DNA from: Candidatus Dadabacteria bacterium
Lineage (GTDB): Bacteria > Desulfobacterota_D > UBA1144 > Nemesobacterales > Nemesobacteraceae
Assembly: GCA_009840385.1 (NCBI GenBank)
Contig: VXNX01000009.1
Location: forward strand, 101,585-165,584
Reading direction: 5' to 3'
DNA length: 64,000 bases
Shown: in pieces, positions 35,008 through 55,117 of the stretch
How positions within the stretch are numbered: position 1 is the stretch's first letter
Layout of the letters: each line of letters starts with the position of its first letter
Notes under the pieces: generated by a model
Seen by the model: the letters and a program-made list of their open reading frames with translations, nothing else
What the model was told of the DNA's origin: nothing
Database searches by the model: none
Made by a program: the position numbers and the translations under genes

Positions 35008-35420
35008 TATCCGTGCAAAACGCGGCGGAGCGGGGCCACGGGGGAATTGCAACGCAGAGCAACCGCGTTGTCCTTGCAGTTGAGAATCGGGCCTCAAATG
35101 CTCAAAGCATTACGCCAGACCCAAAGCGGAAACCCGGATTCGAGGAAGCAGTTTAACCGCAAGGGAAAAAATATCACTACTGGCGCAAGACTATTTTAGT
35201 GCCTCTTTTCTCGAGGATTATCTGGAACAACTCTGATGAAAAACACGCCACTGTCCGCTGATCCATATGATGCGGAGGAATTTATTTAGGCCCTTGGAGT
35301 GGTGCCGCGTAAATTTTTAGCCTGATTCCGGTTTATTTTTATCTGTTCAGATAAACCCCCGTGGGATGGAAAAGACAGTTGCCGTAAATCTGGCGGAAGT
35401 CGGATTTGTCTGGAGGTCAG

Positions 35421-37091
35421 TCACTCTTCGGTAGAATCCCATTCACGAGAAGCCCATTCCAAAATCTTACGCTCTCTAAGTCTAATGGCTTTAATTGACC
35501 AGCGTTTATTTGATGCCACTTCAACTGCGATGAGAAGTCCAGTTTCTCTATATTTTTCAAATTTCTTTTTTGAGGGCATGCCGCCCAACCTAGAATTTAG
35601 ACTTGGTGGCAGGAGCAGAAGGTTTCCCAATCTATGTTTAACATGATCGGGTGCGGTATTTTGTGGATAGATATGCTCAATTGATTTAGAGGGGCTTACT
35701 GACCAAATTTTCTCCCACTGTTCATTTTTAAATTTGTTGCCCTTTTGCTTCGTTAGATACTCTTCATATCTGAACATAAAATATCTCAATTCCTCTTGCC
35801 ATCCCTCATAACAGTTTGCGTTTCGCAAGGCTTTTACCGCATCTTCAATTGGGAAATCATTTCCAATTGACCGAATTTCGTTGAATATTTCATCTACAGT
35901 AAGGTTTTCCCGGACTATTTTCCTTGCAAGCCTAGCATACTCACCCACGCGTGTTCGCGCATCGTGGCGAAGCATACCGTAAATTCTAAACGAAACCTTT
36001 TCCCAGATAGACAATAAGCGGGCTTGATCTTTTTTTGTCACTCTTTCGCAGAGGTGTATTGCAACAGCCAGCAAACGTGCCTGTGAAATTCGGGTAACAG
36101 CATTCAGTCGGTGTTTTGATACAACGGCATCACATGCTTTTGTTACTTGTAGAAGCCACCGGGCAACATCCCTTATCTCCCTTGCATCATGTGCTGCTGA
36201 TCGAAATTCGTCCACGGCAGCTTGCTCACTCATTGGACGATTTTGTGGCGTTGACGCACGAAGTGTTGCAGCAAAGCGCAGTGCCTCCGTACTCAGCCCT
36301 TGAGTTAGACCAACTGTGGAGTAAATATCACTCCAAATAATACGTAAATCTTTTATTAATTGTTCGCTATCTGCATCTTCCAGCGTATATGCAGCACCCA
36401 TAAGGATACTCTTGAGACGATCCAGCCAAGACACCTCCATTCCGCGACTGTTGAGTACTTCAAAAACTGTATAAACAGTTTTCTCATCTGATATTTCGTG
36501 CAAAATAAAAGATAGTCGATTTTTGATGTGTCCAACTAAGAGAGTCAATTCATGGCCATTTTCTACCCAATCTTTAACGAACTTTTTACAGTCTGCTATT
36601 GCTGCGAGAAGTTCTCGGTCCGCTAGCGTTTTGCCTTTTTCAGGATCTTCACTTTTACCGTAACGAATGAAATCTGCAAAATGATGGCTTGTATCATGGT
36701 TTGTTTGAAGTAGAAGGAGATTGTCACCACCGACTTTAACCAATAGCTCTTTAAGTTCTCGAGCGGTTAATTCTTCACCGGCATCCTCGCAATTGAGCGC
36801 CAGTCTTATTGCGTTTAATAAAATGATCAAGGTCGTCAGACGTTGTTGACCATCCACTATATCCAGTTTATGGAACTCATGAGTACCAAGTGTTATCTTC
36901 TTCTTCCGAAGACAAACAATAACTGCCATAAAATGGCTCGCATTCTCACCTTGAAGATTATTTATATCTTCAAACAGGTCTTTTCGTTCACGCGAAGTCC
37001 AACTGTATGCACGCTGATAATCTGGGATATTAAATAAACGCCCGTTGAGTAGATTTGCGAAGGTAAGATGCAGAGGTTGAATGTCGATCAT
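35421..37091 (-). CDS. DUF262 (ParB-like) plus DUF1524 (His-Me finger) protein, GmrSD-like type IV restriction endonuclease family
   Basis: N-terminal IPDYQRAYSW and VDGQQRLTTL DUF262 motifs. C-terminal nuclease-like region. 556 aa. Confidence 0.65.
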   Translation of the reverse strand: MIDIQPLHLTFANLLNGRLFNIPDYQRAYSWTSRERKDLFEDINNLQGENASHFMAVIVCLRKKKITLGTHEFHKLDIVDGQQRLTTLIILLNAIRLALNCEDAGEELTARELKELLVKVGGDNLLLLQTNHDTSHHFADFIRYGKSEDPEKGKTLADRELLAAIADCKKFVKDWVENGHELTLLVGHIKNRLSFILHEISDEKTVYTVFEVLNSRGMEVSWLDRLKSILMGAAYTLEDADSEQLIKDLRIIWSDIYSTVGLTQGLSTEALRFAATLRASTPQNRPMSEQAAVDEFRSAAHDAREIRDVARWLLQVTKACDAVVSKHRLNAVTRISQARLLAVAIHLCERVTKKDQARLLSIWEKVSFRIYGMLRHDARTRVGEYARLARKIVRENLTVDEIFNEIRSIGNDFPIEDAVKALRNANCYEGWQEELRYFMFRYEEYLTKQKGNKFKNEQWEKIWSVSPSKSIEHIYPQNTAPDHVKHRLGNLLLLPPSLNSRLGGMPSKKKFEKYRETGLLIAVEVASNKRWSIKAIRLRERKILEWASREWDSTEE

Positions 37092-37162
37092 TGGGAATTC
37101 TTGGAACTGTCTTTTTTGACGTTAAAGTTAGAAAAGTACTGGATTTATATACTCAACTCAAT

Positions 37163-38074
37163 TTAATATGAAAATTCAGAACAGATAGCTTCCCAGATGT
37201 ATTCTGCTGTCTCTTGCGGAGACATGAAATCTACATTATTTGTAAAAGCTAGCATTCCCATGGAATTTAATTTAAGCTCTCCTTCGTGTTCTTCCACAGA
37301 AATTATTTCGTTTGTTGATTTATCTTCACTCACATCTATATGGGTCCCATGTAGCATCCAAATTTCATCTCCCCACATTTGACCGTTTATCCATATTTTC
37401 AGGCTAGTCAATATATTTCCTTCATTGTAAAGAGTGAACAGCACTTTCCTTGTTGTTATCTTTTCGACTTCAAATTCAAAGGTCGGGTATTCATTTTTAG
37501 TTTCACGCACAAATTCACCAATGGCGAAGACTATATGCTCAAAAGATTCCCTAAGAAACTTTTTCTTTTCTTGATCGGAAAACGATCTCCTAAGCTTGGG
37601 TATATAGGACTTTGAGAAATTTGATTTGTTCAGCTTTCGCCCCTCATCTTGTTTCTTTCTTCCGATCTTCTGGAGGAAAAGGTCCACAATCTTTTCAGGT
37701 TCCGTACTTTCTGCAGAAACATATACGATAGTGTTAGGAAGTCCTGGAACATCGCCGGAAAAACCATCAAGACGAACTGGAAGTATATATGCTTCTCCTT
37801 TTTCTTGAATGCTTTTCTCCATAGCGTTTCTAAGCTCCCATACAGTCCACACTTTCTCTAGATAATAATCTGAAAGAATTATTATGCAGTACCGACTATC
37901 AGTGAAATATATTTCTCTCAATTTAACCGATAGATCTTCTCCCCATAGATTAGCGGGATTGAATTCATCATAAAAAACTTCGACTTTTTCCGCTTGTAAT
38001 GCGGTGGCTATAGCTTCAGCGAAATTTCTATTTTCACCCGCAAATGATAAGGCGACATCATATTTATATGTCAT
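37163..38074 (-). CDS. TIR-domain protein (ThsB-like)
   Basis: YDVALSFAGENRNFAEAIATALQAEKVEVFYD...IIILSDYYLEKVWTVWELRN matches the bacterial TIR_2 pattern, including the putative catalytic Glu. About 170 aa C-terminal extension of unknown function. Confidence 0.7.
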   Translation of the reverse strand: MTYKYDVALSFAGENRNFAEAIATALQAEKVEVFYDEFNPANLWGEDLSVKLREIYFTDSRYCIIILSDYYLEKVWTVWELRNAMEKSIQEKGEAYILPVRLDGFSGDVPGLPNTIVYVSAESTEPEKIVDLFLQKIGRKKQDEGRKLNKSNFSKSYIPKLRRSFSDQEKKKFLRESFEHIVFAIGEFVRETKNEYPTFEFEVEKITTRKVLFTLYNEGNILTSLKIWINGQMWGDEIWMLHGTHIDVSEDKSTNEIISVEEHEGELKLNSMGMLAFTNNVDFMSPQETAEYIWEAICSEFSY

Positions 38075-38179
38075 ACATAGTAATCCTTAATCATCTAGAG
38101 TAAGAAGACAAAATATAGGGAACGAAATTGGTAGGGTCGCATTCTTTAGCACATCCATATAATCCTCTTACAAACCTTA

Positions 38180-39031
38180 TTATGTTGTCGATTGTCTCAC
38201 AGCTCCAAGAGTGTGATTGACCGCGAGACGTAGATTGTCTTCTACACGAACTATAGTATCCATGCCATTATCTTCACCCAAACGACGAACAGTAATTGTG
38301 ATGTTAACAGACTCCCCATGAAATTCATCTACAAAAACTTGCTCTCTCCGTAAAAGTTGAGATGAGGTGATTAAGAATGAAATTTCAGGTTCGTCATCTA
38401 AAAAGAGATTCATGGAATTGGATGCAAAAACAAACCGGTCTATATCGGTTGGCAATTCCGAGAAAAGCGTCTGCATGTTTCCAGTTGGCCAATAAATCAC
38501 TTGAATCAGTACTACATACCGAAAACTTTTTCCATGATTGACAAAAGTCCATTCAATTCCCAGTTCATCACCATAACTAGCGACTTCAATGGCCCAATCA
38601 GTGTAAAAATTGGAGATTTCAGCTCTTGCTTGCGCTGGATTCGAGATTCGCGACAAAGACCGTAGCAGAAAGTTGAAACTTCCATCTATATCCTCACGAA
38701 AATCAATACAAGATTTTTCCTTGAGAAGTAAAGGAATTTCACAATCATCAAGTATGATGGGGATTAGTAAAACCGACTTTTCTTCTAATTCTCGTATCAA
38801 TCCGGCACGCAACTCCTTTTTGCACCATTCAGATTCAACAGAGTCCTTAGATAGCAAAACTAGTATCGCGTTCGCATCTCCCAAAGCTTCTTCGATCTTG
38901 GAGATCAAAGAGTCACCCGCATTGAGTTCCCATTTATCGATCCAAACATTCTGCTTTGCTTGAACTAGATTAAGTGCCAAATTCTCAGCGAAATCTCTGT
39001 CGGCCTTGTTGTAACTAATGAATACTGGCAA
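38180..39031 (-). CDS. TIR-domain protein (ThsB-like), second copy
   Basis: MPVFISYNKADRDFAENLALNL...AILVLLSKDSVESEWCKKEL TIR pattern. About 150 aa C-terminal region of unknown function. Confidence 0.7.
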   Translation of the reverse strand: MPVFISYNKADRDFAENLALNLVQAKQNVWIDKWELNAGDSLISKIEEALGDANAILVLLSKDSVESEWCKKELRAGLIRELEEKSVLLIPIILDDCEIPLLLKEKSCIDFREDIDGSFNFLLRSLSRISNPAQARAEISNFYTDWAIEVASYGDELGIEWTFVNHGKSFRYVVLIQVIYWPTGNMQTLFSELPTDIDRFVFASNSMNLFLDDEPEISFLITSSQLLRREQVFVDEFHGESVNITITVRRLGEDNGMDTIVRVEDNLRLAVNHTLGAVRQSTT

Positions 39032-39458
39032 TGTATCTCCTCCAATTTCTAAGTTGGCCCCACACTACTTCACTGAGGGGTAGAAAAATTAGTGTATCTT
39101 TCAAGATACTGTATAATATAAGTATTCTCTATAGTACAATACTACGGTAAGAAGAATTCACCAATGGGTGAAAACATTGAATACTTCTTAAAAAACATCT
39201 CTCGAAGGCCTAGTTGGATAATGGTGGAATTGGTGAACTTACTTGCCATGGGTCAGGTTTACAACGGGCTTCCAGTCGCACAGTAAAAGTAGATTGGAGA
39301 TGGTTAAGAAGAACTTAGGGACCAAAGATCCAAATCTCGGCTTTCTGAATCACCCAGCATATCGGTCCTTACAAAAAACTTCATTGAGATGGTTGAAGTG
39401 AAATTGTCTAATAACTGAATTATAGTCCTATTAACATTCCTCAATTAAAACCACGAAA

Positions 39459-39893
39459 ATGACGCCGGAAGAATATCTCAAGGATCGAGTTGAACAGCAA
39501 ATCAATTGGTACGACTGCAAAAGTACCCTTAACAAAAGATACTTTTACCTTTTACAAATCATTGTTTTGGTAATGTCCGCGGCTGTGCCAGTGGTTTCAA
39601 TACTATCCATAGTTTTTGAAAGCATATGGATACGGCTTGCCATAGGAATATTGGGTGCACTCGCAACTATAGCAACAGGGATTATTTCAATTTGCCAGTT
39701 TCGTAAGAATTGGATTGAATACAGGACAACGGCAGAATCGCTGAAGTGTGAAAAATACATGTTTAGAACTAAAACTGGTTTCTATGCAAAAAGTGGAACT
39801 TTTCCAGTGTTCGTAGAACGAATTGAAGCATTGATCAGCAAAGAGCACAAAAACTGGGAACAACATCTGAGAATCCAGAAACAAGCCGACTAG
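39459..39893 (+). CDS. SLATT-like two-TM protein (DUF4231-like predicted membrane effector)
   Basis: 144 aa. N-terminal WYDCKSTLNKRYFYLLQ followed by two hydrophobic helices and a short C-terminal tail, the SLATT/DUF4231 layout. First gene of the plus-strand operon. Confidence 0.5.
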   Translation: MTPEEYLKDRVEQQINWYDCKSTLNKRYFYLLQIIVLVMSAAVPVVSILSIVFESIWIRLAIGILGALATIATGIISICQFRKNWIEYRTTAESLKCEKYMFRTKTGFYAKSGTFPVFVERIEALISKEHKNWEQHLRIQKQAD

Positions 39894-39928
39894 AAAACAT
39901 TATCTCGCTGGCAAACAAGAGAATAACA

Positions 39929-40900
39929 ATGCCAGAAAATCGAAAAACTGAACTACGCGTTGCAGAAACGGTGCTGCCGTTGCCGTGCTTCTTCCCGTCA
40001 GTTTCAAGTGTAGTAAAAACCGACATGACACCAACTGATCATATAGAGCTTCTCGGTTTTTCCGCACACTCGCTCTTTCTTATTTCGGCATATGATGTTG
40101 CGAACTGCACTTACCAAGACCGAAAGCGCATAAAAACCGCACTTGATAAGAGCAAAAAACACGGGGCAGTAATACTGATGGATAGCGGTAATTACGAGGG
40201 GTTTTGGAAAGTAGACAAAACTTGGAAGGCAGATAATTTCCATGAAGTCGTAAAATCCTGTAAAAATGATCTTTGTTTTTGTTACGACAATCACAATCCC
40301 CCTGATTCCATAGAGACAATTGCGGAGGATGTGATTGCAAGAGTTATTCAAGATCAAAATCACACCAATGGGATCGTGTGTCCGATAATACACGGGGAAA
40401 CCACACTTCTGCCTGGTTCAGCCAAAAGGGTGGCAGAACAACTTTCTCCATTGCTTTTGGCGATTCCTGAACGAGAATTAGGAAAAGGAATAATTGGACG
40501 GATTCGGACTATAAAAAAAATACGAAAATCCCTAAACGATCTGGAAACTTATTGCCCCCTGCATTTGCTAGGTACGGGAGACCCCGTCTCAATCATTGCT
40601 TATTCAATGGTCGGGGCAGACAGTTTTGACGGATTGGAGTGGTGCAAAAGCGTTATAGATCACGAAACAGGTAATCAGCACGATTTTCAACATTGGGACT
40701 TTTTCCGGCATCAAACAAATCGAGAACTGCCGGAGAATTTTCCCCACAAGCAATCAGTCTTGATGCACAACTTGAATTTCTACAGACAGTTCATGAAGGA
40801 ACTACATGACGCTGTAAAGAATGAAGATACAGAAACGTTTCTGCGACGGTATACAACCGAAAACCAGGCTTCTTTATTGGTTGATGCAATCAAACAATAA
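39929..40900 (+). CDS. tRNA-guanine transglycosylase-fold protein, DpdA-like (predicted 7-deazaguanine DNA transglycosylase)
   Basis: ILMDSGNYEGFW (equivalent of the DSGGFQ substrate pocket) and PLHLLGTGDPVSIIAYSMVGADSFDG (equivalent of the LxGxGxP...D.FD segment carrying the catalytic Asp). No CxCxxC zinc site. Confidence 0.65.
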   Translation: MPENRKTELRVAETVLPLPCFFPSVSSVVKTDMTPTDHIELLGFSAHSLFLISAYDVANCTYQDRKRIKTALDKSKKHGAVILMDSGNYEGFWKVDKTWKADNFHEVVKSCKNDLCFCYDNHNPPDSIETIAEDVIARVIQDQNHTNGIVCPIIHGETTLLPGSAKRVAEQLSPLLLAIPERELGKGIIGRIRTIKKIRKSLNDLETYCPLHLLGTGDPVSIIAYSMVGADSFDGLEWCKSVIDHETGNQHDFQHWDFFRHQTNRELPENFPHKQSVLMHNLNFYRQFMKELHDAVKNEDTETFLRRYTTENQASLLVDAIKQ

Positions 40901-41604
40901 TGGGTAAAACGTTCGCAAACCAACTTCCGCTTTCGGTTATTAAAAACGCGATTCTAGATATTTGTATCGTCCTAGAAGAGCAAGAACTAATATTCACCTC
41001 TTCACCAACTTGCAGTGAAGACAATCTTTGGAGAGAACTTGTGTCCTGCATTCTGGGGAGCCGGGTCAGGTTTGAAACCGCTTGTGCTGCGGTAGAGCGG
41101 CTAGACGACATGTGTTTGTTATGCCACTCACGCCGCACATCAAACTTCGACCAATATGAAACTGACATACTGTCAACTCTTTCGGGAAAGTATCCGTTTT
41201 ATAAGCTTCGAGCAAATCAGATACGGCAGGCGGCGGAATCACTTTATGGTTCCGGGGGTTCAATTAAGAGTCTCTTGGATAATACAGTCGATTTCCGTGA
41301 GATGCGGCAATACCTGATATCTGAAATCCCAGGATTGGGACCAAAGCAGTCCAGCTTGTTTCTTCGCAATATAGGATACGCCGACAGCGTTGCTGTTTTG
41401 GATGTTCATGTTCTGACCTATATGAATTGGGTTGGTTTGACAACGGTTCTTGAGAAGTCAATTCCGACTATACGCAAATACGAAACGCTTGAGAACTCTT
41501 TCGTTGAACATTCCCTATCTTTAGGATATTCTCCAGAGCAGTTTGATCTTGCCGTGTGGTTAGTTATGAAGGTAGCAAGGAAGGAATATAAAACATGGGG
41601 ATAG
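40900..41604 (+). CDS. HhH-GPD superfamily DNA glycosylase, Ogg2/AGOG-like
   Basis: ISEIPGLGPKQSSLFLRNIGYADSVAVLDVHVL helix-hairpin-helix Gly/Pro loop plus a downstream Asp, typical of archaeal-type 8-oxoguanine glycosylases. Start overlaps the upstream stop. Confidence 0.55.
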   Translation: MGKTFANQLPLSVIKNAILDICIVLEEQELIFTSSPTCSEDNLWRELVSCILGSRVRFETACAAVERLDDMCLLCHSRRTSNFDQYETDILSTLSGKYPFYKLRANQIRQAAESLYGSGGSIKSLLDNTVDFREMRQYLISEIPGLGPKQSSLFLRNIGYADSVAVLDVHVLTYMNWVGLTTVLEKSIPTIRKYETLENSFVEHSLSLGYSPEQFDLAVWLVMKVARKEYKTWG

Positions 41605-42179
41605 TGACTCTTGTATCCGGAGGTGTCGACTCCATGCTCATGAGCCTTTTTGCTCACGAAGAGGGTGTCGAGTTATTTCCCCTTTTCGTTGATTATGGGC
41701 AGCTTGGAGTATCCAAAGAATGGGAGGCATGCAGGCGACTACACGAACAGTTTGGTCTGCCAGAGGTCACTTATATGGACCTCTCAGGTTTCGGAGAAAT
41801 TATTCCGAGCGGTATTACAGACTCCAGATTGAGAATAAACGAAGATGCTTTCCTACCTGGCCGCAACCTTCTTTTTGTGCTGGCCGGAGCAGCCTATGCC
41901 TTAAAGGTCCAAGCCGATAGCGTGGCAATAGGTCTGCTTTATCAATCGGACCATATTTTCCCAGATCAAGACGAAAAATTCATTGAAAGGTGTGAAGAAG
42001 TGATTGAAACAGCCATGGGAAAACATATTAATGTCATCGCTCCGTTAATAGAGTTTTCAAAAACAGACGTGCTGACTATGGCCCGTGCACGCGGACTAGA
42101 AAACACATATTCCTGTCACGCAGGAGGCGATAGACCCTGCGGGGTATGTATAGCGTGTGTTGAGATTGACAATGCCTAG
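41595..42179 (+). CDS. queC: 7-cyano-7-deazaguanine (preQ0) synthase
   Basis: VTLVSGGVDSM PP-loop and C-terminal zinc ligands CHAGGDRPCGVCIAC, 194 aa. Confidence 0.8.
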   Translation: MGIVTLVSGGVDSMLMSLFAHEEGVELFPLFVDYGQLGVSKEWEACRRLHEQFGLPEVTYMDLSGFGEIIPSGITDSRLRINEDAFLPGRNLLFVLAGAAYALKVQADSVAIGLLYQSDHIFPDQDEKFIERCEEVIETAMGKHINVIAPLIEFSKTDVLTMARARGLENTYSCHAGGDRPCGVCIACVEIDNA

Positions 42180-42193
42180 ACAAAGGAGGAATC

Positions 42194-42697
42194 ATGGGTG
42201 GTAAATACTCAGGTGGTGGCAGTCTAAGCCCAGAACACCTAGAAGAACTTGAGCAGAGTGCCAAGAAATCCATAGAAAAAGGGGTATCTGGAAAGGTAAA
42301 TGCGTTCATAAGCTTTGATTCTGAAGACCTCAATGAAGTTAACTTGCTGCGCGGTCAAGCCAAAAACGAGAATACCGATATCGAATTCAATGATTGGTCG
42401 GTTAAAGTACCCTTTAACAGCGAAAGAGCTGAGTACATTCGACGTCGTATCCGGGAACGTATCAGGCAGTGTTCAGTCACAATTGTTTATGTTTCCGAAA
42501 AGACAGCCAGCAGCAAGTGGGTTGATTGGGAAATAAGAGAGAGCCTTGCTATGGGTAAAGGAGTTGTTGCCATGCACAAAGGTTCTACACCACCCAGACA
42601 ACTTCCAAAAGCGATTAAGGAAAATAATATTCCCGTTGTGCCTTGGAACCAACGGGAATTGGCAAAAGCTATCAAAAAACAGTCGGAAAACCGATGA
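42194..42697 (+). CDS. TIR-like domain protein (DUF1863/ThsB-like)
   Basis: KVNAFISFDSEDLNEVNLLRGQ...CSVTIVYVSEKTASSKWVDWEIRESL fits the DUF1863 TIR-like pattern. Confidence 0.5.
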   Translation: MGGKYSGGGSLSPEHLEELEQSAKKSIEKGVSGKVNAFISFDSEDLNEVNLLRGQAKNENTDIEFNDWSVKVPFNSERAEYIRRRIRERIRQCSVTIVYVSEKTASSKWVDWEIRESLAMGKGVVAMHKGSTPPRQLPKAIKENNIPVVPWNQRELAKAIKKQSENR

Positions 42698-42716
42698 GTG
42701 AAACCCAAAGGTAAAT

Positions 42717-43460
42717 ATGAATATCGATCTTAATAACATAAACCATTTGCCGGAGGCTGAGCAGCATAAGCTTGAATCAATTAGAGACTTGTGCCATCAA
42801 GAAGAATACTCCCAAGAATTAGTCAGACATAGTCGGGTACAGCCATTAGTTCGGGAACTAAATGATTTTTGCATGTCTAATCGAGTTATTGGAATTCACT
42901 ATACTCGTGCAAACAAGACAAGCATAGTTAAGTACGGGTTATTGTGCCGTTCTGGTGATGAGATCAGGGAAACTTTTCTTGAAGAACACGGGAAGCTCTT
43001 TACAGATGAGGAGATATCCAAACTAAAAAGCACTTGGGATAGCACCTATTGTAAAGAAGAGGCTAGTAACCGAGATTTCATGATTTTTTTTAATTTTATT
43101 ATTACCGAAAATCCTTTACATAATGCGGCTACAGAGGATCTCCTGAACCACTATGGAGGTGAACAAATTCCAATATGCTTTTGTCAACCTCCTTTGTTCA
43201 TACAGGGCGGCACCAATAAAAAATGCTCAATCTGCAAGAAACTAAACCAAATAGGTGAACCATTATTAGTTAGATGCTCATTAGACCCCAAAACAGTTAA
43301 TACTTTTACCGAGAATCCATGGGGGAAGATTTTAGTTTCCTCATTTCATGTTGAAGTTAATCCCGAAGCTTGTCGCATAGACCAAGATGGTTATATTAAG
43401 AAGCCAGTTTCCCCTCAGAACATTCTTGAAGTTAAATTACTAACAGATAGTTTCAACTAA
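42717..43460 (+). CDS. hypothetical protein with paired-Cys (possible zinc-ribbon) motifs
   Basis: ICFCQPP...KKCSICKK Cys pairs and no recognisable family. In operon with queC and TIR-like genes (19-nt gap). Confidence 0.3.
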   Translation: MNIDLNNINHLPEAEQHKLESIRDLCHQEEYSQELVRHSRVQPLVRELNDFCMSNRVIGIHYTRANKTSIVKYGLLCRSGDEIRETFLEEHGKLFTDEEISKLKSTWDSTYCKEEASNRDFMIFFNFIITENPLHNAATEDLLNHYGGEQIPICFCQPPLFIQGGTNKKCSICKKLNQIGEPLLVRCSLDPKTVNTFTENPWGKILVSSFHVEVNPEACRIDQDGYIKKPVSPQNILEVKLLTDSFN

Positions 43461-43497
43461 CTTTGGTATATCGCTCTTAACGGATAGCAGTATTTTT

Positions 43498-43902
43498 ATG
43501 GTTACCTTACAGGAGCAAAGCCTAGATTGGGCTCTTGCGCATGTGGAAACATTCGGAGACACGGATGTTTTTCCAATACCCTTTGAGTACGAAGCAATTC
43601 GTCATGATTGGGAGGCATTAAAATTTCAACTTGCCGGACAGGACCTCTTAAAATGGACAGTGCGGCCACTTCGAATCTTGCCGGCACCGAAAGCTCGATA
43701 CGGGTTTCGAATAATAACCCAACTTGACCCTTTAGATTTCCTATTGTTTGCTGCAACTATACGAGAACTCTGTACCTCGATAGAGTCCAAGCGTATCTCT
43801 CCATCCGTAGTGTGTTCGTACAGAGTGGCACCAACGGAGAATGGCCAACTTTTTGACCAAAACTACTGGCAAATTCTCATTTGGGAAGATGATCAAATAT
43901 AG
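43498..43902 (+). CDS. hypothetical protein resembling the N-terminal (motif 0-2) region of a reverse transcriptase, possibly truncated
   Basis: RPLRILPAPKARYGFRIITQLDPLDFLLFAATI resembles the RT IPKxxGxxRPI...D(R)..Q segment. Only 134 aa. Ends about 15 nt from the 3' end of the convergent PHP-ATPase gene. Confidence 0.25.
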   Translation: MVTLQEQSLDWALAHVETFGDTDVFPIPFEYEAIRHDWEALKFQLAGQDLLKWTVRPLRILPAPKARYGFRIITQLDPLDFLLFAATIRELCTSIESKRISPSVVCSYRVAPTENGQLFDQNYWQILIWEDDQI

Positions 43903-43916
43903 AGGGCATAATTTTT

Positions 43917-46900
43917 TTAGGATATTTGATATTTTAAACGCCTTTTAAGAAATGCTGGCTGTGAACCTTCCAAAATATCTACTATTTTTTGATTGATACT
44001 AGGGTTTTCAATCGCGCCTGTTTCATAACTGAATTTGTAATTTTCCGCCTTTTCTAATTTGACGCATATAATCTGTTCAGCATCAGCTCCGACGGCCAGA
44101 TTAGGATTGTGGGTTACTAAAACAACTTGCCTGCTCCTCTTAGCTTTTCTTATACACTGTGACAGAACTCTAAAAATACTCTCATTATCCAAATTATCCT
44201 CAGGCTGATCAATTATGAGAGGAATGGTTTCCTTATCAAGTTGGAGATAAAAAACGAGTAATAACAATCCCTTTTCTCCTGGTGATAGTTCATTAAGATT
44301 TTTGCCGCCTAATTGGAGCTCATATTTTGCCGTCACGTATTCCAACGAAAACATAAAATCGTAAAACTTTTTGCTATCCATAACCTGATCACGTATTAGA
44401 ACAGGTTCCTCGTTATATAACGACATTTCCTGAATCACTCTATCAAAAAATGCGTAAACTGATTCAAAATCGTTCCAATCAACTCCAGCAACTAAGTCCC
44501 TTAAAAGGTTCTGAGGTTCGTTTGTCCCATGGAAGTAACCACGTTTCTTTTTGTTAATAAGTTTCAAGAAATCATCAGCAAACGAGTTATCAGTTACAAA
44601 AGACGCTTTAATTTCAACTGCAAATTCGTCAGTCTTAACAGAGTCAAGTTTGGATTCAACGCTATGTTTAAGCTCGGAATAAAAATTCAGAATTTGTTTT
44701 TTACTTTCAAAAATGTCTTTAACAATCTTTTTTCGTCTCTCACGTGCTTGGGAAATTTCTTCACTTAATTCACGATCAATATATGTAATTTTTCCTCTCA
44801 AATATCTTGTGGTTCCTGATTTTGGATCATCCGCACCACCAAGTATTTCGTCCTTTTGGGCATTCCACACAGCTAATTTCTCTAAATAGCTTTGATATTT
44901 TCTTTGAGGAGTTCCTAATTTGTCCTTTAATTCATTTATTTCCTCGACTAGGTGTGTGATCCCGGATTTTAAATCAGGTAGAGTCTCAAAAAACTCTGGT
45001 TGGGCATCTTTCACAAAATCCAGATTGCTGTCACTTTCAAGTTTCTGGATTTTAGCTTCTACCATAATAATCTGATCCTCAATAGGTTTTGTATTAATCT
45101 TACTTGTAATTATTTTTTCAATATCAAGACCCAGTTCATCACAGATAATCTTTAGTTCAGATCTTTGCCTTTGGATGTGCGTTTCTAATGATGATACATT
45201 CTGCAAAAGTGCTTTTAGTTTTTGCAACAGGTCCTTCTTCTGGGTTAATTCATCAATAAATTTTCTTTCCTCAGATGCTAATTTCTTTCTGCGCAATTCA
45301 AGTTGCTCTATCCGTTCAGTCAACTCTTTTTGCTCTTCAGATTCTTCATCGGGTTTGCTTATCTCAGCAGGCTTGGCTTCCTCCAGCGAACTCAATTCAT
45401 CTTCTCTAGCTCTCAGCTCCCCCTCTAGCCTCTTCCTAAATAGAGGATCAGATTGTTCTTCTAAATCAACTATTCCAATGTTGAGTTCACGAAGTTTAGT
45501 TTTCAGCAGACTGGTTTCCTGCTTGCTTTGCTGAGTTTTAAACTCCTGCAAATCCTTAAATGTTGCCTTCCCCATACGATCAGTTTCTTCAACATGTGAA
45601 AAAACAACATTCTCTATTTCCCTGCGAAACTGTTGAATCTCTATTTCGTTTGTTAGTTGCTCAAAGTAGTTTTGTGGCAGGTAGCGAACGGCTTCAGGCT
45701 GGCTTTCATCAATATCCTCGTCCAGTTGCTTAGAAATAGTTGAACCGCTCTGCCACTTTAACTTCGCCGTAAAATTCTCTGAATATCCGCGTTGCCGAAA
45801 TTTTTTATTATCTTTCTTGTTTATAAGGAAAGAAAAATTGTTTTCCTGTCTGCTATTGCTCAAAAGGCCGATAATATCAACCAAAGCGCTCTTTCCATTC
45901 CCCTTGTTACCAATGATAACAACTAGTTCCGGGTTTAACTGGATATTCACTTTTTTAAACCAATAGCCATTAACTCCGTCGTATCCCTCTTTCTGGTCAA
46001 TTTCTAGCTCCTTCAGAAACTTTGTGGCTTGGTTAGATTTCCTTATCTCAACCTCTGGTTCAGAACCAATATGAACTCTCGCTTCAGGTTCAAAGCAAAT
46101 TTGTTCTAGGCCTCGAAACGTCAGATCCGCTTTAATCCATGTCGGCTCATATCCAGAGACATCTCCTCCTAAACGCTCCAAGTCGTCAAAAGAGTGAGCA
46201 TCGCTTGCAGAGACAACTGGTTTAGGCCGTGATTTACCGTCTTTATAGCGATCAGGTTGTAGAAACCAACCCCTGCTTTTAGAATCACCGAAAAATAAAT
46301 GACTTCCCTTGTCTATCTTGTCAGAAATCAAAACTTTTCGAGGTGCTCTGCTATCAGTACTCCTTATACCATCGTTTTTAGCTGGAAACGCAATAAGGTA
46401 AGGCCTTGTTTCTCCAAAAGTCTCTTCCAAAGCCTCTCTGAGTTCTTCGAAAGAGACGGTCGCTGCCTTATATTGTGATTGGGTTCTAAGTTCAGCACAC
46501 GAAATTCTTGCTCCAGTCTCCTTGTTAGCTGAAGTTTTAAGCGTTAACAAGAAACGATTTATCGAATCTTTCGAGCAAACCTCTGTGTCATTGTCAAAGA
46601 TCACATGAATGTTCGGGTTGCTATTTTCCGGGCTAATTGCTTCAACCAATCTAAACTCAATATTCGGGAAGAAAACTTTATCAGTTTCAGGATATTTCTT
46701 TTTATATTTTTCCAACAAAGAGAAATAGCCATCGGCACTAAAATAATCCGTAATGCCAAATGCTTGAACTAGGGATTTCTCTAAACAATCAATGTATTCA
46801 TCCCACACATTCTCTTCGTTCCCATAAGAGTCAGCTAACTTTGTTCCCGGCGTATGTATATGCAAATCCCAGCGTCGCCACTGAGAACCTTTTTTTGAAT

Positions 46901-46925
46901 TCAAGCTGCTCTTTTTCTTTGTCAT
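43917..46925 (-). CDS. PHP-domain phosphoesterase fused to a Rad50/SbcC-like SMC-type ABC ATPase
   Basis: N-terminal WDLHIHTPGT PHP metal-binding motif. Walker A IIGNKGNGKSALVDIIGL near aa 340. About 200 aa coiled-coil rich in E/K/L/Q. LSPGEKGLLLLVF signature. Walker B/D-loop PLIIDQPEDNLD and H-loop VVLVTHNP. 1002 aa. Confidence 0.65.
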   Translation of the reverse strand: MTKKKSSLNSKKGSQWRRWDLHIHTPGTKLADSYGNEENVWDEYIDCLEKSLVQAFGITDYFSADGYFSLLEKYKKKYPETDKVFFPNIEFRLVEAISPENSNPNIHVIFDNDTEVCSKDSINRFLLTLKTSANKETGARISCAELRTQSQYKAATVSFEELREALEETFGETRPYLIAFPAKNDGIRSTDSRAPRKVLISDKIDKGSHLFFGDSKSRGWFLQPDRYKDGKSRPKPVVSASDAHSFDDLERLGGDVSGYEPTWIKADLTFRGLEQICFEPEARVHIGSEPEVEIRKSNQATKFLKELEIDQKEGYDGVNGYWFKKVNIQLNPELVVIIGNKGNGKSALVDIIGLLSNSRQENNFSFLINKKDNKKFRQRGYSENFTAKLKWQSGSTISKQLDEDIDESQPEAVRYLPQNYFEQLTNEIEIQQFRREIENVVFSHVEETDRMGKATFKDLQEFKTQQSKQETSLLKTKLRELNIGIVDLEEQSDPLFRKRLEGELRAREDELSSLEEAKPAEISKPDEESEEQKELTERIEQLELRRKKLASEERKFIDELTQKKDLLQKLKALLQNVSSLETHIQRQRSELKIICDELGLDIEKIITSKINTKPIEDQIIMVEAKIQKLESDSNLDFVKDAQPEFFETLPDLKSGITHLVEEINELKDKLGTPQRKYQSYLEKLAVWNAQKDEILGGADDPKSGTTRYLRGKITYIDRELSEEISQARERRKKIVKDIFESKKQILNFYSELKHSVESKLDSVKTDEFAVEIKASFVTDNSFADDFLKLINKKKRGYFHGTNEPQNLLRDLVAGVDWNDFESVYAFFDRVIQEMSLYNEEPVLIRDQVMDSKKFYDFMFSLEYVTAKYELQLGGKNLNELSPGEKGLLLLVFYLQLDKETIPLIIDQPEDNLDNESIFRVLSQCIRKAKRSRQVVLVTHNPNLAVGADAEQIICVKLEKAENYKFSYETGAIENPSINQKIVDILEGSQPAFLKRRLKYQIS

Positions 46926-47096
46926 CTGTTGTTCTTACTCATTGCGACAGAAAACCAGCATTATATGGGGGTATATAGACCTAGCTCTTCGTTCTTTTCC
47001 ACTCGCTTCGATTGATTTTCAACACTTACCCACATGCGGCAACTCAGATTCAAAACTACGTACTAAAGTTTAACGATGGGCTTTGCAGAAAAGATT

Positions 47097-48410
47097 TTAA
47101 TCATCTCTCCAGCCTTTTACCTCAAAAGTAAACTCCCCGGTGTCAATATCCTTACCAAGAGAATTCCAGAAATCGCGGTAAAACAATCCAATGAGTTCCG
47201 AAATCTCTTCAGGATTGCCCAACGAATATCTGGGAAATTCTATCAAACTTGGCTGCAATATTGTTGGATACATAGTGTCTATATGCCTGTTATTAGATGT
47301 TATGTATGCAGAGTTTCCTATTGCTCGAATCTCTGCATCGAGAACATATTCGGCAGTAGGAACAAGTGCTTGGTTCCTGACTCGGTCAGCCCAAGCCACT
47401 AGATTAGCAAAGACAACAACTGGAAAACTCCGTGGAAGGTCAAGTTTGCCTCCCGAACCAGCAGCTCTAAGACATGAAACAAAACCTATCTCTATCAAGC
47501 CGTCACAGTGAAGTTCTCTATAGCTATTGTATAAGCGATTCGTGTTTCCAGGACCCCAATCAGATTCCTCTCTCGCCGCGCGCAACATAGGTCGACATTG
47601 AACACTTGCGGAAGAAATTCCCATATCACTCAGAACATAAGGTTCTTGGTTGTCTTGCTTAATATATATCTTTCGCCATGGTTCATTGAACTCACTTACG
47701 ATTGCACTTCGGTGAAAAACCCGGTCAATACGGATTTCATCTCCTATTGGCATGGCGGTAAATCGGATTCCATACGCATCCGTAGGAGTTTCAAGACATT
47801 CAAATTCCTCTTGAAAACGGTTGCGGCGCACTGAAAGCCGTTCATCTAAACGCTCAAGCCCCCGCGCCATGTTGAGTGTCATGTCCTGAATTTCCCGCAT
47901 AGTCATTTTTTCACATCGGTCAAACCGCCGCACGGGACAGACAAGGATTTTTGTAACCCGATGGGGTGCCAGCCGCGAGCGTCCGACACGTATTATAACA
48001 ACACCGCTCTTACCTTGAGTAGGCACAGCGAATATCTCAAGCCTTGGAAGTTGTGGTTCCACGCGGTCACGAAACACAAGTTTGAGACGTTCTGCTAATT
48101 CTTCGCATCGCGGAACCGGCGATATATCATCCGTGACGGCCGGTTTCTTATCAAGATCACATTCTTTGATTCCTAGAAATAAAGCTCCTCCATGCGCATT
48201 TGCAAAGGCGGTAACCTCTTCAAGTATTACATTCTTCGCCCGATCCCCGATTTCATTTCCACCGGACATCCATGGATCGAGAGCACCTTCCTTGGCTGGC
48301 AGGCTCTCCTTAAATTCTATATGTTCGCCTTCTGGAACCCTCGAATCAACAAACGATTTAATGTGAGAACTGTCGATTTGCTCTGAGGGCATGGAAAGCA
48401 ACTCAGTCAT
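47097..48410 (-). CDS. Schlafen/AlbA_2-domain protein (putative nucleic-acid binding, defense-associated)
   Basis: N-terminal EGEHIEFKESL...ILEEVTAFANAHGGALFLGI matches the AlbA_2 (Schlafen-like) domain. C-terminal about 280 aa uncharacterised. Confidence 0.5.
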   Translation of the reverse strand: MTELLSMPSEQIDSSHIKSFVDSRVPEGEHIEFKESLPAKEGALDPWMSGGNEIGDRAKNVILEEVTAFANAHGGALFLGIKECDLDKKPAVTDDISPVPRCEELAERLKLVFRDRVEPQLPRLEIFAVPTQGKSGVVIIRVGRSRLAPHRVTKILVCPVRRFDRCEKMTMREIQDMTLNMARGLERLDERLSVRRNRFQEEFECLETPTDAYGIRFTAMPIGDEIRIDRVFHRSAIVSEFNEPWRKIYIKQDNQEPYVLSDMGISSASVQCRPMLRAAREESDWGPGNTNRLYNSYRELHCDGLIEIGFVSCLRAAGSGGKLDLPRSFPVVVFANLVAWADRVRNQALVPTAEYVLDAEIRAIGNSAYITSNNRHIDTMYPTILQPSLIEFPRYSLGNPEEISELIGLFYRDFWNSLGKDIDTGEFTFEVKGWRDD

Positions 48411-48499
48411 TAAATTGGTACCTCAACCCGTATCAAAATGGCAGGTATGCACGCTTAAGTCAATCAAGATTTAATATTGTTAAGTCTAACGCCAAGCGA

Positions 48500-50419
48500 T
48501 TACTTCTGTTCGGTAAATTCGGCGTCTATAACATCGTCGCCCGAGGTGGAATTCCCCTGACCGGATGCAGAACTTTCCTGTCCACCATCCTCGGCGTCCT
48601 GCGCAGCTTCTTCCTGCTGCTTTTTGTACATCAGTTCCGCAAGCTTGTGAGAGACAGCGGTTATTTTCTCCGTTGCGAGATCGATTTTGCTTAGATCATC
48701 CGACTTAAGGGCTTCCCTTCCCTCTTCAAGAGCCTGCTCAAGTTCCTTTTTCTCATCCTCAGATAGGCCGTCGCCAAGCTCCTGGAAACTCTTGTCGGTC
48801 CTGTAGACGAGCTCGTCAAGCTGGTTTCTTTTCTGAACTTGCTCGCTTTTCTCCTTGTCCTTCTCGGACATCTTCTCGGCTTCCTCGACCATGGAGTCGA
48901 TCTCGTCACTGCTTAGCCCGCTTGAAGCCTCGACCTTCACTTTCTGCTCCTTCTGGGTCGCGTTGTCCTTGGCGGATACGTGGAGTATTCCGTCGGCATC
49001 TGTATCGAAGGTGACCTCTATCTGCGGAATGCCCCTTGCCGCCGCAGGAATTCCCGACAGAATGAACCTCGCAAGCGTCCTGTTGTCGGCAGCCATCTGT
49101 CGCTCTCCCTGCAGCACGTGAATCTCAACCGAGTTCTGGTTGTCCTCTGCCGTGGTGAATATCTGGCTTTTCTTGGTGGGAATGGTTGTGTTTCTCTCGA
49201 TAATGGTGGTCATGACCCCTCCGAGAGTCTCGATGCCAAGGGAGAGGGGAACAACATCTAAAAGAAGCATGTCGGTCACGTCTCCGCCGAGCACGCCCGC
49301 CTGTATGGCCGCCCCCATGGCAACTACTTCGTCAGGGTTTATTCCCCTGCTCGGATCCTTTGCGAAAAAGTCAGTCACGACTTTCTGGACAAGCGGGATT
49401 CTGGTCGATCCGCCGACCAGTATTACTTCGGCTATCTCGCCCGGGCGAAGCCCCGCGTCCTTAAGGGCCTGCTCGCAGGGTTTGAGGGTGCCCTTTATGA
49501 GATCCTCGATCAGCTGCTCGAACTTTGAGCGCGTTATCTTCATCACAAGGTGCTTTGGACCGCTTGCGTCAGCTGTTATAAACGGCAGGTTGATTTCCGT
49601 CTCAACGGTGTTTGAAAGCTCGATCTTGGCCTTCTCGGCGGCTTCCCTAAGCCTCTGCACGGCCATCTTGTCCACCCCGAGGTCTATTCCGGAATCCTTT
49701 TTGAACTCTGAGACGATGTAATCAATGACCCTCTTGTCAAAATCGTCTCCGCCGAGATGCGTATCGCCGTTTGTGGACTTTACCTCTATAACGTTGTTTC
49801 CTACCTCGAGCACGGATACGTCAAAAGTTCCACCCCCAAGGTCGTAGACGACTATCATCCCTTCCTTTTTCTTGTCAAACCCGTAGGCAAGCGCCGCGGC
49901 AGTCGGCTCGTTTATTATGCGTTTTACGTCAAGGCCGGCTATCTTTCCGGCGTCCTTAGTGGCTTGGCGCTGGCTGTCGTTAAAATAAGCGGGAACCGTG
50001 ATAACGGCTTCAGTGACTTCGGAACCCAGGTAATCCTCGGCAGCTTTCTTAAGCTTCATGAGCACGTGCGCTGAGACCTGCGGGGGGGAATACTGTTTTC
50101 CTTCTACCTCGACCCAGGCGTCTGACTTGCCCGACTTTACGACGCTGTAGGCAAGGCCATCCGCTTCGCTCGATATCTCCTCAAACCTTCTGCCCATAAG
50201 CCTTTTGGTAGAGTAGACGGTGTTCTCGGGGTTGGCCACGGCCTGGCGCTTCGCCGGTCCGCCGACCAGAACTTCTTCTCCGTCTTTTAGAAACGCAACT
50301 ACCGACGGGGTGGTTCTCGTGCCCTCCTCGTTGATTATCACTTTCGGCTCGCCGCCCTCAACGATTGCTACGCATGAATTAGTTGTTCCAAGGTCTATTC
50401 CTATTATCTTAGAAGCCAT
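48500..50419 (-). CDS. dnaK: molecular chaperone DnaK (Hsp70)
   Basis: [21 protein letters not shown] and [11 protein letters not shown] signatures, 639 aa. Confidence 0.95.
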
Positions 50420-51652: not shown

Positions 51653-54600
51653 TTAAGGCACCAGTTTAATTTCTTCCGCCAGTTCCAGATAGCGACAGAA
51701 AGCATTGGCGAGTTGTATCTGTCGAGGCGTCCGGCACTCCGCCTCGAAGACCTGTGGAGAACTGACCATAATTGACAGGCACTTGGCACGCGAGGTGGCA
51801 ACGTTAAGTCGGTTCAGACTGTACAAAAACTCCATCCCCCGCGGTGCATCTTTATGGCTTGATGTTGCTGTTGAATAAATTGCAATTGGTGCTTCTTGGC
51901 CTTGGAATTTATCTACCGTGCCCACCCTAGCTCCCGCTAGGAGTCGCTGAATCTCAAAGACTTGCGCGTTGTAGGGCGTAATGATCAAGATATTGTCAAG
52001 GGTGACAGGTCTTTTGCTACCATCACGGTCCACCCAAGTTGCGTCACTATTCAACAATCTTTTTACAAGTGCTTCTATCGCCAGTGCTTCTTCAGGTGAG
52101 CAATTCTGATTGCCCTCGTGTTCGACGGGCAGATAGTACAAACCTGCGCCGTTGATTGGTCCAGATGCATGGACCACCTGCTGCTTTAGGTCTTTCTTCG
52201 CTTTGAGCTTGCCCTCATAGAAAAGTTCTGATGTATAATTGCAGATGTCGGGGTGCAACCGCCAAGTTTCTTCAAGAAATAGACCCTGTTCAGGTCTTAT
52301 TGTTTGCTTACCAGCTAAAACATGGTCAAGTGCGGAAACGTTAGTGCCATCTGGATGACTACCTTGCATTGGTTGGTCAAGTTGCTGCGGGTCACCGATC
52401 AGCACAACGGTATTGGCAGCCTGCGAGACCGCCAGCACATTGGCTAACGACATTTGTGCCGCTTCGTCGACAAACAGCACATCGATTATCTCAGAAGCCT
52501 CCGGTCGTGCCCACAGCCAAGCTGTACCGCCACCAACATTGACACTACTTCCAAGCATGTCGAACAGCTCTTCATTTTTCCTGGTAAAGCAGAGGCGAGG
52601 TTGCTCATCTTCGATCTCCGCAGCCTTATGACAGCAACGTAAATCCACTCCGCTTTCTTCTGCCGCCGCGATGGCTGCGTCAATCAGATTGCGGATTACC
52701 TTATGGCTATTCGCGGTGATACCGACCGTCTTGCCTTGGTGCACAAGTTCACAAATCATTTGCGCACCGGTAAATGTTTTGCCTGTGCCTGGTGGTCCCT
52801 GAATTGCTAGAATCCCCCCTTCTAGATGACCGCATAGCCGCACGGCTGCGTCAACAGTCGCTTCGCCTTCACGGTGCAACTTTTGTCCACCGATGCGAGG
52901 GGTTTCTTTCAGTAAGAGATCTCGTGCAGCCCGATATTTGCCTTCACCACGCAAGCCGTCACTGACGACATGTTCCGCAAGGCGCACTAGCGAGTCAGCG
53001 AGCACCTGTGTAGAGACATGGTCGTGTGCGAACACAGCGTGAGGGTGGGTCGCCTTGCTATCTTGCCGTTTCTTGATATCAATGGTGTAGTCTTCAAAAG
53101 AAATCGCAGCAACCTTCGCCACTATTTTGTTATCTTCACAATTGCAAAGATTCTCACCGCCGCGGAATTCGTTTTCCTGCGGCGGGAATTTATAGCGATG
53201 AATTGGTGCTCTTTCCGTACCTCCCACCTCATTGACAAAGGTGAGACCTGACAACCCGGTACGTTCATCCATCAGTTCCTCTGCCGAAAGGTCGCACAGC
53301 CGGAAATATTCCCACCATACGGCTTTGTCTTCCCGGCGGTGCCAGTCAATTATGTTGGCCAATACCCATAGTCCCTGTTGTTCTTTATCCCGTTTTTCTG
53401 GATCAGTCGGAATGCCAGCAGTCAGTTGTTCAATCAGCGGATTAATTTTCATAAGCCAGTCAGTGATTCTTTCTGTTGGCGAACCGTCACCCGGTTCTGG
53501 ACGCGGTATATCCGCCCCATCTGCTAGTAACTGACCGCGTTGCGTTTCAAGCCAGTCTCGCAGCCCTGCCACGGAGGCACAGTCATCCTTGTTGTAGACT
53601 AACACCGTGGCTTTGGTCTCCTCCGTAATTGAAGGAATATCATCCAGTTCCAGATTGGCTTGAAGATTTGCAAGTGCTGCATTTGCATCCGGGAGTTGCG
53701 TATTGCGCTTGAAGCCGTAGAACGGTTCCAGGTCTTTGATTGAATAGCTTTCAACGCTGGCACGAATACTGTGGCGCACGACCTGATATAGATCAATAAA
53801 TACGCCGGCGCGCAACAACTGGTCGATTTCTTCTTCTCTCGAGGCATATCTCCCCATCAGCCGTTTTAAGGCTGAGGTCTCGTAAGGTGCATAATGGTAA
53901 ATGTGAAGGTCGGGATATTGCTCCCAACGTTCCATAACGAAATCGACGAAATTCTCGAAGGTCTGCCGTTCTTCAGCGCGTGAGAAAGCCCAGATGTTTT
54001 TGTAAACAGTGTCAGCACTCTCATCATTGAATACATAACCGAACAGATATTCAAGTCCATGTTCTCCAACAAAAGGATCGCCTTCGAGATCGAAGAAAAT
54101 ATCGCCAGGCGAAGGTTCAGGAAGGCAAGAGAGGCCAAAGCCATGCTTAACAGGCAGCAATTCAAATTTACATTTGCCACTTTCTCTCGCCTCGACCTGA
54201 ATGCGGGCCTGTTCGCGTACTCGGTCATAGAAGTTTGCCGAGCCGCGTTCTGGTTCCCATGGCGGTGGCAACGGCAATAGAGCCAAGTCCTGTACCGTCG
54301 TGATGTTGTGCTGTGATAGTTCCTTAATCTGGAGTTTGGATATTCCAGCCACGAGACAAAGGTGATCATCGTCGCGGCGGTGCTTGTCACAGTTTTCCCG
54401 CCAGCGGCAGATATCACAATACTCTTTGGGGTCGGGATAGGTCTTTTCGGCTTCCTGACTTATTAGGAATTCCCGAAGTGCCCGCTGTACCTTGCGAAAA
54501 TACGCGGCATAGTCGGCAAAACGATATTTCCGCGGTTCGAAATCAGACCAAGGGACAACTACGTACATATAATCGGGCGTGACACCTTGTGCCTTCGTTA

Positions 54601-55063: not shown

Positions 55064-55117
55064 AGCTGAAGCACACTGTCTCTATACAATAGCTAAAGAT
55101 ATAACTAGGACGCCACA

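Follow-up and report, generated by a model that had tools for sequence, protein, structure and literature searches.

A gene on the minus strand of a 64,000-nucleotide stretch of DNA from a Candidatus Dadabacteria bacterium (assembly GCA_009840385.1, contig VXNX01000009.1, positions 101,585 to 165,584; hereafter the window) encodes, in one polypeptide of 1002 amino acids (aa), a metal-phosphoesterase domain of the PHP fold, in which an HxH...E...H...DxH core is conserved, and a complete SMC/Rad50-type ABC ATPase. On its profile matches the protein is assigned to the TrlF family and not to the Ppl equivalog, and the gene is probably a horizontally acquired, stand-alone defense gene and a distant relative of E. 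coli Ppl. A description made earlier from the sequence letters (the original prediction) had recognized the fusion but did not find its architecture familiar from any named defense system. That last point did not survive comparison, as the architecture is the same as that of Ppl and a single model, NCBIfam NF045780, takes in both proteins. The fusion of a PHP domain to an ATPase is a design already known, and the window protein is a relative of Ppl rather than a new kind of system.

Family identity was established with NF045780 ('TrlF family AAA-like ATPase'), which scored the window protein at 655.7 bits against a cutoff of 350 and aligned aa 12–1000 to model positions 1–944 of 944. The features expected of the family are present, namely the N-terminal PHP fold with its HxH...E...H...DxH core and all of the ABC ATPase motifs, split by a coiled-coil insert. 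The reference for Ppl was an E. coli ppl gene annotated by PGAP on a plasmid (L089:2697-5384), the product of which matched NF045780 over its full length at 475.5 bits and the Ppl equivalog model NF042955 at 1326.7 bits. Because Ppl passes NF045780 and aligns collinearly with the window protein, it can be placed as one branch of the TrlF family. The collinearity runs through three blocks (aa 13–120, 236–392, and 873–995), which correspond to the PHP N-terminus, the segment from the SDAH motif through Walker A, and the C-terminal head, with identities of ~22–32% that are highest (32%) over aa 873–995. Both proteins are single polypeptides in which a PHP domain at the N-terminus precedes an NTPase of the ABC/SMC type that bears a helical insert, and both are encoded by single genes on mobile DNA or in defense islands. 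The window protein differs in being ~110 aa longer (1002 vs 895 aa) and in filling six of the nine PHP ligand positions present in Ppl (HxH, D, TDH, E, H, AH, DxH).

Ppl is an established single-gene anti-phage protein (PMC13223576; PMC12904381) that was among the systems of Gao et al. (PMC13223576; bioRxiv 10.1101/2022.08.27.505566), and it impairs phage T7 and is countered by Bas63 gp130 (PMC11482910). In a 2026 review, Ppl is described as a single-stranded DNA 3'-5' exonuclease that senses 3'-OH ends produced by a phage homing endonuclease, and that is inhibited by nucleoside triphosphates (NTPs) on both the PHP and NTPase domains until phage-induced NTP depletion lifts the inhibition (PMC12904381). 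The name TrlF derives from the temperature-restriction locus of Photorhabdus, an operon of trlR, trlF, and trlG in which the trlF product had been annotated as a histidinol phosphatase and the trlG product has AlbA_2 and HATPase_c_4 domains (bioRxiv 10.1101/2020.06.02.129163). This was the one relevant report on 'TrlF' in the literature searched, and mechanistic work was found there for one branch of the family only, Ppl. The anti-phage activity and the mechanism, known for E. coli Ppl only, are quoted here from secondary sources. The primary reference is Xu et al., Mol Cell 2026.

The open reading frame (ORF) is uninterrupted from its ATG in both the ORF list and the translation, and occupies 43917–46925. 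The original prediction placed it correctly and left the strand unstated; it is the minus strand, and the plus-strand translation of the same interval contains many stops. The gene and the parts of its product are as follows.

43917–46925, minus strand: TrlF-family (Ppl-like) gene, 1002 aa plus stop codon (ORF list, translation, NCBIfam NF045780)
46026–46889, minus strand: N-terminal PHP-fold phosphoesterase domain, ~aa 13–300
46848–46871, minus strand: PHP HxH motif, WDLHIHTP at aa 19–26
46740–46757, minus strand: PHP TDY motif
46650–46667, minus strand: PHP PNIEFR motif
46596–46613, minus strand: PHP H107
46368–46397, minus strand: AFP replacing AHP
46188–46205, minus strand: PHP SDAH motif
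45648–46016, minus strand: N-terminal half of the ABC ATPase head, ~aa 304–426 (AlphaFold2 secondary structure, Pfam SMC_N and AAA_29)
45888–45911, minus strand: Walker A, GNKGNGKS at aa 339–346
45666–45683, minus strand: Q-loop
44637–45647, minus strand: antiparallel coiled-coil arm inserted in the ATPase, ~aa 427–763 (AlphaFold2 helices, Foldseek)
43920–44636, minus strand: C-terminal half of the ABC ATPase head, ~aa 764–1002 (conserved motifs)
44268–44288, minus strand: signature, LSPGEKG at aa 880–886
44187–44219, minus strand: Walker B and D-loop, LIIDQPEDNLD at aa 903–913
44100–44120, minus strand: H-loop, VTHN with H939

The identity of the N-terminal domain, which had been read as PHP from its motif, is settled by the modeled structure. 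An AlphaFold2 model of aa 1–310, built with 24 homologues, had a mean predicted local distance difference test (pLDDT) score of 88 and showed an alternating strand/helix barrel, and its top Foldseek matches in the PDB were exclusively PHP domains (E 3e-6 to 1e-3, probability 1.0), namely those of RNase AM, Pol III alpha, PolC, and 'PHP-like metal-dependent phosphoesterases'. In the full-length model (pLDDT 82), long helices over aa 427–763 (at aa 456–516, 530–597, and 649–763), a coiled coil of ~340 aa, separate the two halves of an ABC head, and the top structural matches of the model were Rad50 (the best), MukB, Smc, JetC, LmuB, and RecN. The claim of an SMC-type ABC ATPase is confirmed as well, with every motif that had been quoted for it present and the ATPase alone recognized by Pfam (SMC_N at 41.7 bits, cutoff 40, and AAA_21). 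Conservation across the family agrees with this assignment: G339, G344, K345, S881, G883, D906, E909, D910, and H939 occur in 73/73 relatives, and S346 and Q418 in 70/73 each. Searches of PDB chains by sequence, whether started from the protein itself or from a profile of 24 sequences, returned only generic motifs of ABC, Rad50, and SMC ATPases; neither a PHP chain nor a solved structure of Ppl or TrlF was among the matches.

When the N-termini of 73 family members (loci L001–L089; window protein aa 19–246) were aligned locally, the family split cleanly in two. In the 23 H-type members, which include Ppl, all nine canonical PHP ligand positions are filled (HxH, S-x-D, TDH, PGxE, H, xHxG/AH, SDxH). 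The 50 Y-type members, to which the window protein and the TrlFs of Klebsiella and Yersinia plasmids belong, instead carry HxHTPxTK, TDY, PNxE(F/L)R, H, and SDAH, and lack a His at the AHP position (the window protein has AFP there), leaving six of nine ligands. With this reduced set, the chemistry of the Y-type branch (a two- versus a three-metal site) and its trigger may differ from those of Ppl.

Several observations weigh against reading the window gene as a defense gene of the Ppl kind. The Pfam PHP hidden Markov model (HMM) detects no PHP domain in the window protein, and a scan of the N-terminal 310 aa of this protein and three relatives at E<=10 gave no usable match, the best being PF02811 at E 0.19 in the P. 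savastanoi copy. With the Ppl equivalog model NF042955 (cutoff 1000 bits) the window protein scores 75 bits, and with the PADLOC Ppl model (PDLC02208) it scores 63.8 bits over the C-terminal aa 875–995 only, compared with 1778.6 bits for genuine Ppl. The sole phenotype tied to the TrlF name is that of the selected temperature-restriction mutations of Photorhabdus, and these lay in trlG, not trlF (bioRxiv 10.1101/2020.06.02.129163). No report of a Y-type member having been tested was found in the literature searched. Finally, the third-position Asp is lost in the window protein, the TDH His is replaced by Y61, and the AHP His by F180, and with three canonical PHP ligands replaced, nuclease activity is not assured. 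The PHP domain of E. coli Pol III alpha, which has a degenerate ligand set, is inactive.

Should the Y-type PHP domain no longer be a nuclease, it might serve as a nucleotide- or ligand-binding module or as a structural one, and the protein would be an ATP-driven DNA sensor or clamp that exerts its effect, such as toxicity or recruitment of a host nuclease, in the absence of PHP catalysis. Such a role would fit the loss of three metal ligands throughout a branch that makes up 50 of the 73 sampled relatives, the failure of the Pfam PHP HMM, and the binding of NTPs as regulators to the PHP domain of Ppl, as given in the review (PMC12904381). Some family members are also clearly dead at this site, with QxG and SDSES in L043 and L044, both of which are paired with a TrlG-type gene (AlbA_2 plus HATPase_c_4), so that the family can do without PHP catalysis in at least some contexts. 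The P. savastanoi copy has SDPKG. The remaining six ligands, however, are nearly invariant (H22 and H24 in 70/73 relatives, E90 in 73/73, D242 and H244 in 71/73) and include what is presumably the complete first metal site, going by the trinuclear assignment of YcdX-type proteins. Y61, N88, and R92, which are specific to the branch, do not vary within the clade of the window protein, and this points to a site that was remodeled rather than one that has decayed. A non-catalytic role is therefore considered unlikely, and the Y-type PHP domain is probably a remodeled and still catalytic site, to judge from these conservation patterns. It is conceivable, if doubtful, that the Y-type members constitute a large uncharacterized branch with a systematically rebuilt PHP center, which could bind two metals instead of three, make use of the conserved Tyr, Asn, and Arg, and differ from Ppl in substrate, chemistry, or activation. 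A center rebuilt in this way could mean, for example, that NTP gating at the PHP domain is absent or that cleavage is endonucleolytic or directed at RNA.

For a defense gene related to Ppl, a working mechanism can be proposed from the mechanics of ABC and SMC proteins and from Ppl itself. Two copies would engage their ATPase heads around nucleotide to form a homodimer, and the heads and coiled coil would bind DNA, probably at the ends or at 3'-OH overhangs of phage DNA that is replicating or has been cut. Exonucleolytic degradation of the bound DNA by the PHP domain would follow, as in Ppl, and halt the infection. Nucleotide binding may act as the switch, in the way that NTPs inhibit Ppl and their depletion by the phage licenses the nuclease.

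The genomic neighborhoods of homologues bear on whether the gene acts alone. Taking the closest ORF on either side of 71 full-length homologues gave 141 ORFs, which together with the AlbA_2 protein of the window made 142 scanned proteins. None of the families seen supplied more than 6 of these 141 neighbors. The most common were subunits of type I restriction-modification (R-M) systems (S subunit 6, M 5, HsdR 4) and ResIII (6), followed by SLFN_AlbA_2 proteins (5 with that of the window included, 4 of these with HATPase_c_4), N6_N4 methyltransferases (3), GmrSD (2), Mrr (2), and Abi_2 (2). On plasmids, the Sulfitobacter example lies beside a type I R-M system and DUF262, those of Klebsiella and Yersinia beside Abi genes, and that of Companilactobacillus beside HsdR/M; among the annotated plasmid examples, only P. 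savastanoi pPsv48B has an overlapping downstream AlbA_2-type gene. Because these neighborhoods are variable, rich in defense genes, and without an obligate partner, the window gene is probably a stand-alone, single-gene defense system, as Ppl is. The homologues at L087 and L088 (72–74% identity) have RES-domain and type III R-M neighbors. At these loci (L087 7341–12368; L088 7462–12503), a small ORF without a Pfam match (160–214 aa as called) precedes TrlF, overlapping it by 4 bp in L088, and RES-domain proteins and a type III R-M pair follow it, a possible alternative operon context.

The immediate neighbor in the window is a gene with a Schlafen/AlbA_2 domain on the same strand, as had been noted by the original prediction. 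It lies upstream of TrlF at a distance of 171 bp. Two features of the intervening and adjoining DNA are relevant here.

47097–48410, minus strand: AlbA_2/Schlafen-domain gene, 437 aa (Pfam SLFN_AlbA_2 at aa 27–169)
46926–47058, minus strand: 133-bp upstream region that travels with the TrlF gene (DNA similarity to the L086 copy)

The functional link implied by this adjacency would make the locus a two-gene system, a variant of trlF-trlG from Photorhabdus in which the AlbA_2 protein senses or binds nucleic acid and regulates or cooperates with the PHP-ATPase. In favor of this, the genes are close together on one strand, the order rpoH-dnaK-AlbA_2-TrlF is kept in the close relative L090 (AlbA_2 86% and TrlF 89% identical to the window), a TrlG-type gene with AlbA_2 and HATPase_c_4 lies directly downstream of TrlF in 4/71 homologous loci, and trlF and trlG form an operon in Photorhabdus (bioRxiv 10.1101/2020.06.02.129163). 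The recurrence of AlbA_2-type genes beside the TrlF family is the reason that some residual weight is left to the coupling. The resemblance to Photorhabdus, where an AlbA_2-domain gene likewise adjoins TrlF, does not extend far. The AlbA_2 gene is upstream in the window and downstream in Photorhabdus, so that the gene order is reversed, and by Pfam the window AlbA_2 protein lacks HATPase_c_4. Its similarity to the TrlG-type protein is limited to a 24-residue AlbA_2 core, and its candidacy as a TrlG orthologue was rejected on these two grounds. A TrlR-like small regulator was also lacking, as no ORF of >=60 aa is listed between dnaK and the AlbA_2-TrlF pair, and the window locus has neither the downstream TrlG partner nor the TrlR of a TRL operon.

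Comparison of relatives leads in the same direction. A 90%-identical TrlF copy (L086) has no AlbA_2 gene, and its DNA similarity to the window ends at 47058, short of the AlbA_2 stop codon. Homologues of the window AlbA_2 protein are numerous (881 clusters at E<=1e-5), and TrlF was found near only one of the 17 loci inspected, that of the syntenic L090; L091–L094 and the twelve metagenome loci L095–L106 had no TrlF near the AlbA_2 homologue. The closer TrlF homologues L087, L088, and L001 have other neighbors, and the GC content of the AlbA_2 gene (0.457) does not match that of TrlF (0.38). A two-gene system is accordingly quite improbable, and the AlbA_2 gene most likely stands outside the TrlF system. 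We take the adjacency to be a coincidence of the hotspot that close relatives have inherited. The window AlbA_2 gene may itself be an uncharacterized defense gene. The C-terminal region of its product is conserved and of unknown fold, PADLOC gives no match to it, and the neighbors of its homologues at L091–L106 include DUF5655, SMODS/S_4TM, TIR-RelA/SpoT, MmeI-type R-M, and KAP NTPase proteins.

The stand-alone reading is further supported by the mobility of the gene. DNA similarity to L086 is confined to window positions 43901–47058, the gene and its 133-bp upstream region, and in L086 TrlF lies ~9 kb from dnaK with wholly different genes between them (DUF87, SIR2, a transposase, and others). 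TrlF moves as its own 3.2-kb cassette within a defense hotspot between aceE and dnaK (35100–48500), an interval that is variable and that differs in content between close relatives. The distance between the aceE-side flank and TrlF, for example, is ~2.7 kb in L090 and ~8.7 kb in the window. The low-GC stretch at ~35.2–48.4 kb between aceE and dnaK holds the TrlF gene, the GC content of which (0.38) is well below the 0.54–0.56 of the flanking dnaK (54%) and aceE (56%). With GmrSD, three TIR proteins, a SLATT protein, and a Drt8 fragment in this context, the setting is a defense island, as had been proposed. The 133-bp region is the probable promoter of the TrlF gene and contains a TATAAT hexamer at 46960–46965; a consensus promoter scan flagged nothing within it, and a promoter and terminator scan of 43400–48700 found sites no more numerous than in shuffled sequence. 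There are no tRNA genes in the 64-kb window, and no convincing direct or inverted repeats were found at the borders of the cassette.

These data also bear on whether the protein is a housekeeping DNA-repair paralogue of the host, similar to SbcC, RecN, or RecF. The ATPase fold does resemble Rad50, RecN, and SMC, and Pfam SMC_N matches it. The analogy to Mre11-Rad50 that had been drawn is valid at the level of folds, in that the window protein and SbcCD/Mre11-Rad50 both have a Rad50-type ABC head, an antiparallel coiled coil, and a metal-dependent nuclease (predicted in the window protein). The window protein departs from SbcCD/Mre11-Rad50 in its nuclease domain, which has a PHP and not a calcineurin-like fold and belongs to the same polypeptide as the ATPase, and in its short coiled coil; its gene is mobile and lies in an island, unlike a housekeeping gene. 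No Metallophos gene or other Mre11/SbcD-type partner is adjacent to TrlF, and a CxxC zinc hook is found nowhere in the protein, which separates it from SbcCD. The low GC content, the variable island, and the presence of the family on many plasmids with a patchy spread across phyla all argue against a repair function, as do the neighbors of the homologues. A search for homologous fusions and their neighborhoods had been proposed with the original prediction, and beside the 71 homologues it returned mostly R-M, Abi, and GmrSD genes. A housekeeping role is highly improbable on this evidence. The two findings that the original prediction named as fatal to it, an N-terminus that is not PHP and an ordinary SbcC/RecN housekeeping paralogue, were not made.

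Other defense systems share the ABC ATPase superfamily and a defense role with the window protein, including LmuB of Lamassu, JetC of Wadjet, AriA of PARIS, GajA of Gabija, and PtuA of Septu. These systems use separate effector subunits (Cap4, TOPRIM, HNH, and others), whereas the effector in the window protein is the fused PHP domain. PADLOC matches were weak (LmuB 38.9 bits, mad3 63 bits, GajA and PtuA <30 bits), and LmuA/C, JetABD, AriB, GajB, and PtuB were absent among the TrlF neighbors, so that the protein belongs to none of the five. The PHP domains of EndoQ, RNase AM (TrpH), PolC, and Pol III alpha are 9–19% identical to that of the window protein, have no fusion to an ABC ATPase, and use another ligand set.

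The family is large and patchily distributed. A word-indexed search returned 1,689 clusters at E<=1e-5, and the best 120 of these were nearly all full-length proteins of ~1000 aa, several of them named TrlF in their source. When 1.84 billion cluster representatives were scanned exhaustively with phmmer, 1,787 proteins reached E<=1e-30, a family size that counts clusters at 50% identity. Relatives occur in at least 573 species genomes, with a patchy spread over the Pseudomonadota, Bacteroidota, Bacillota, Melainabacteria, Planctomycetota, Acidobacteriota, and Saccharibacteria, and a methanogen. Plasmid records with a TrlF match number 1,147, of which 197 cover >=80% of the query, and many are from Klebsiella and Escherichia. 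Just 7 weak or partial matches were present in the phage collection searched, so the family does not appear to be mainly phage-borne there.

The main value of the result lies in annotation hygiene. In a protein of this type Pfam recognizes SMC_N and AAA_21 alone, PADLOC 2.0 labels only the narrow Ppl branch and has no full-length model for the branch of the window protein, and the PADLOC candidate model PDC-M49A, which may represent a related architecture, matches family members in part only. As the Pfam and PADLOC models miss the branch, genes such as this one would be passed over by defense finders even though NCBI names the family, and many TrlF genes are located on clinical plasmids. Once shown, the activity and trigger of a Y-type member would extend a recently described form of immunity, based on the sensing of DNA ends and NTP levels, to a far larger set of genes, and would not amount to a new kind of system.

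The remainder of the island and its surroundings include several other candidate defense genes. Directly beyond the cassette on the plus strand, a 134-aa ORF (43498–43902) is the N-terminal fragment of a Drt8-type defense reverse transcriptase, matching positions 2–119 of 493 in the PADLOC Drt8 model (E 8e-38). The end of this fragment coincides with the start of DNA similarity to the TrlF cassette of relatives (43901 and 43914), and the reverse transcriptase gene was therefore apparently truncated at the cassette border. Six close-packed genes on the plus strand at 39459–43460, some with overlapping starts and stops, encode a SLATT_1/DUF4231 protein, a TGT-like protein (PADLOC TGT, 3e-28), an Ogg/HhH-GPD glycosylase-like protein, QueC, a ThsB-type TIR protein, and a 247-aa protein without a match. 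The set, in which deazaguanine-type genes are joined by TIR and SLATT, is operon-like and was matched to no named system. On the minus strand at 35421–39031, the end of the low-GC TrlF island nearest aceE encodes a GmrSD/HEC-06-type restriction enzyme (556 aa) followed by two proteins with TIR domains (303 and 283 aa). A second low-GC island lies past dnaK/rpoH on the minus strand at 51653–60618. It encodes a 433-aa protein without a match, a NOV_C protein (277 aa), a SNF2 helicase (636 aa), a 1136-aa protein that combines PD-(D/E)XK, RNase H-like, and SF1 helicase regions and resembles MkoA of Mokosh at its C-terminus, and a BglII-like endonuclease with an N6_N4 methyltransferase.

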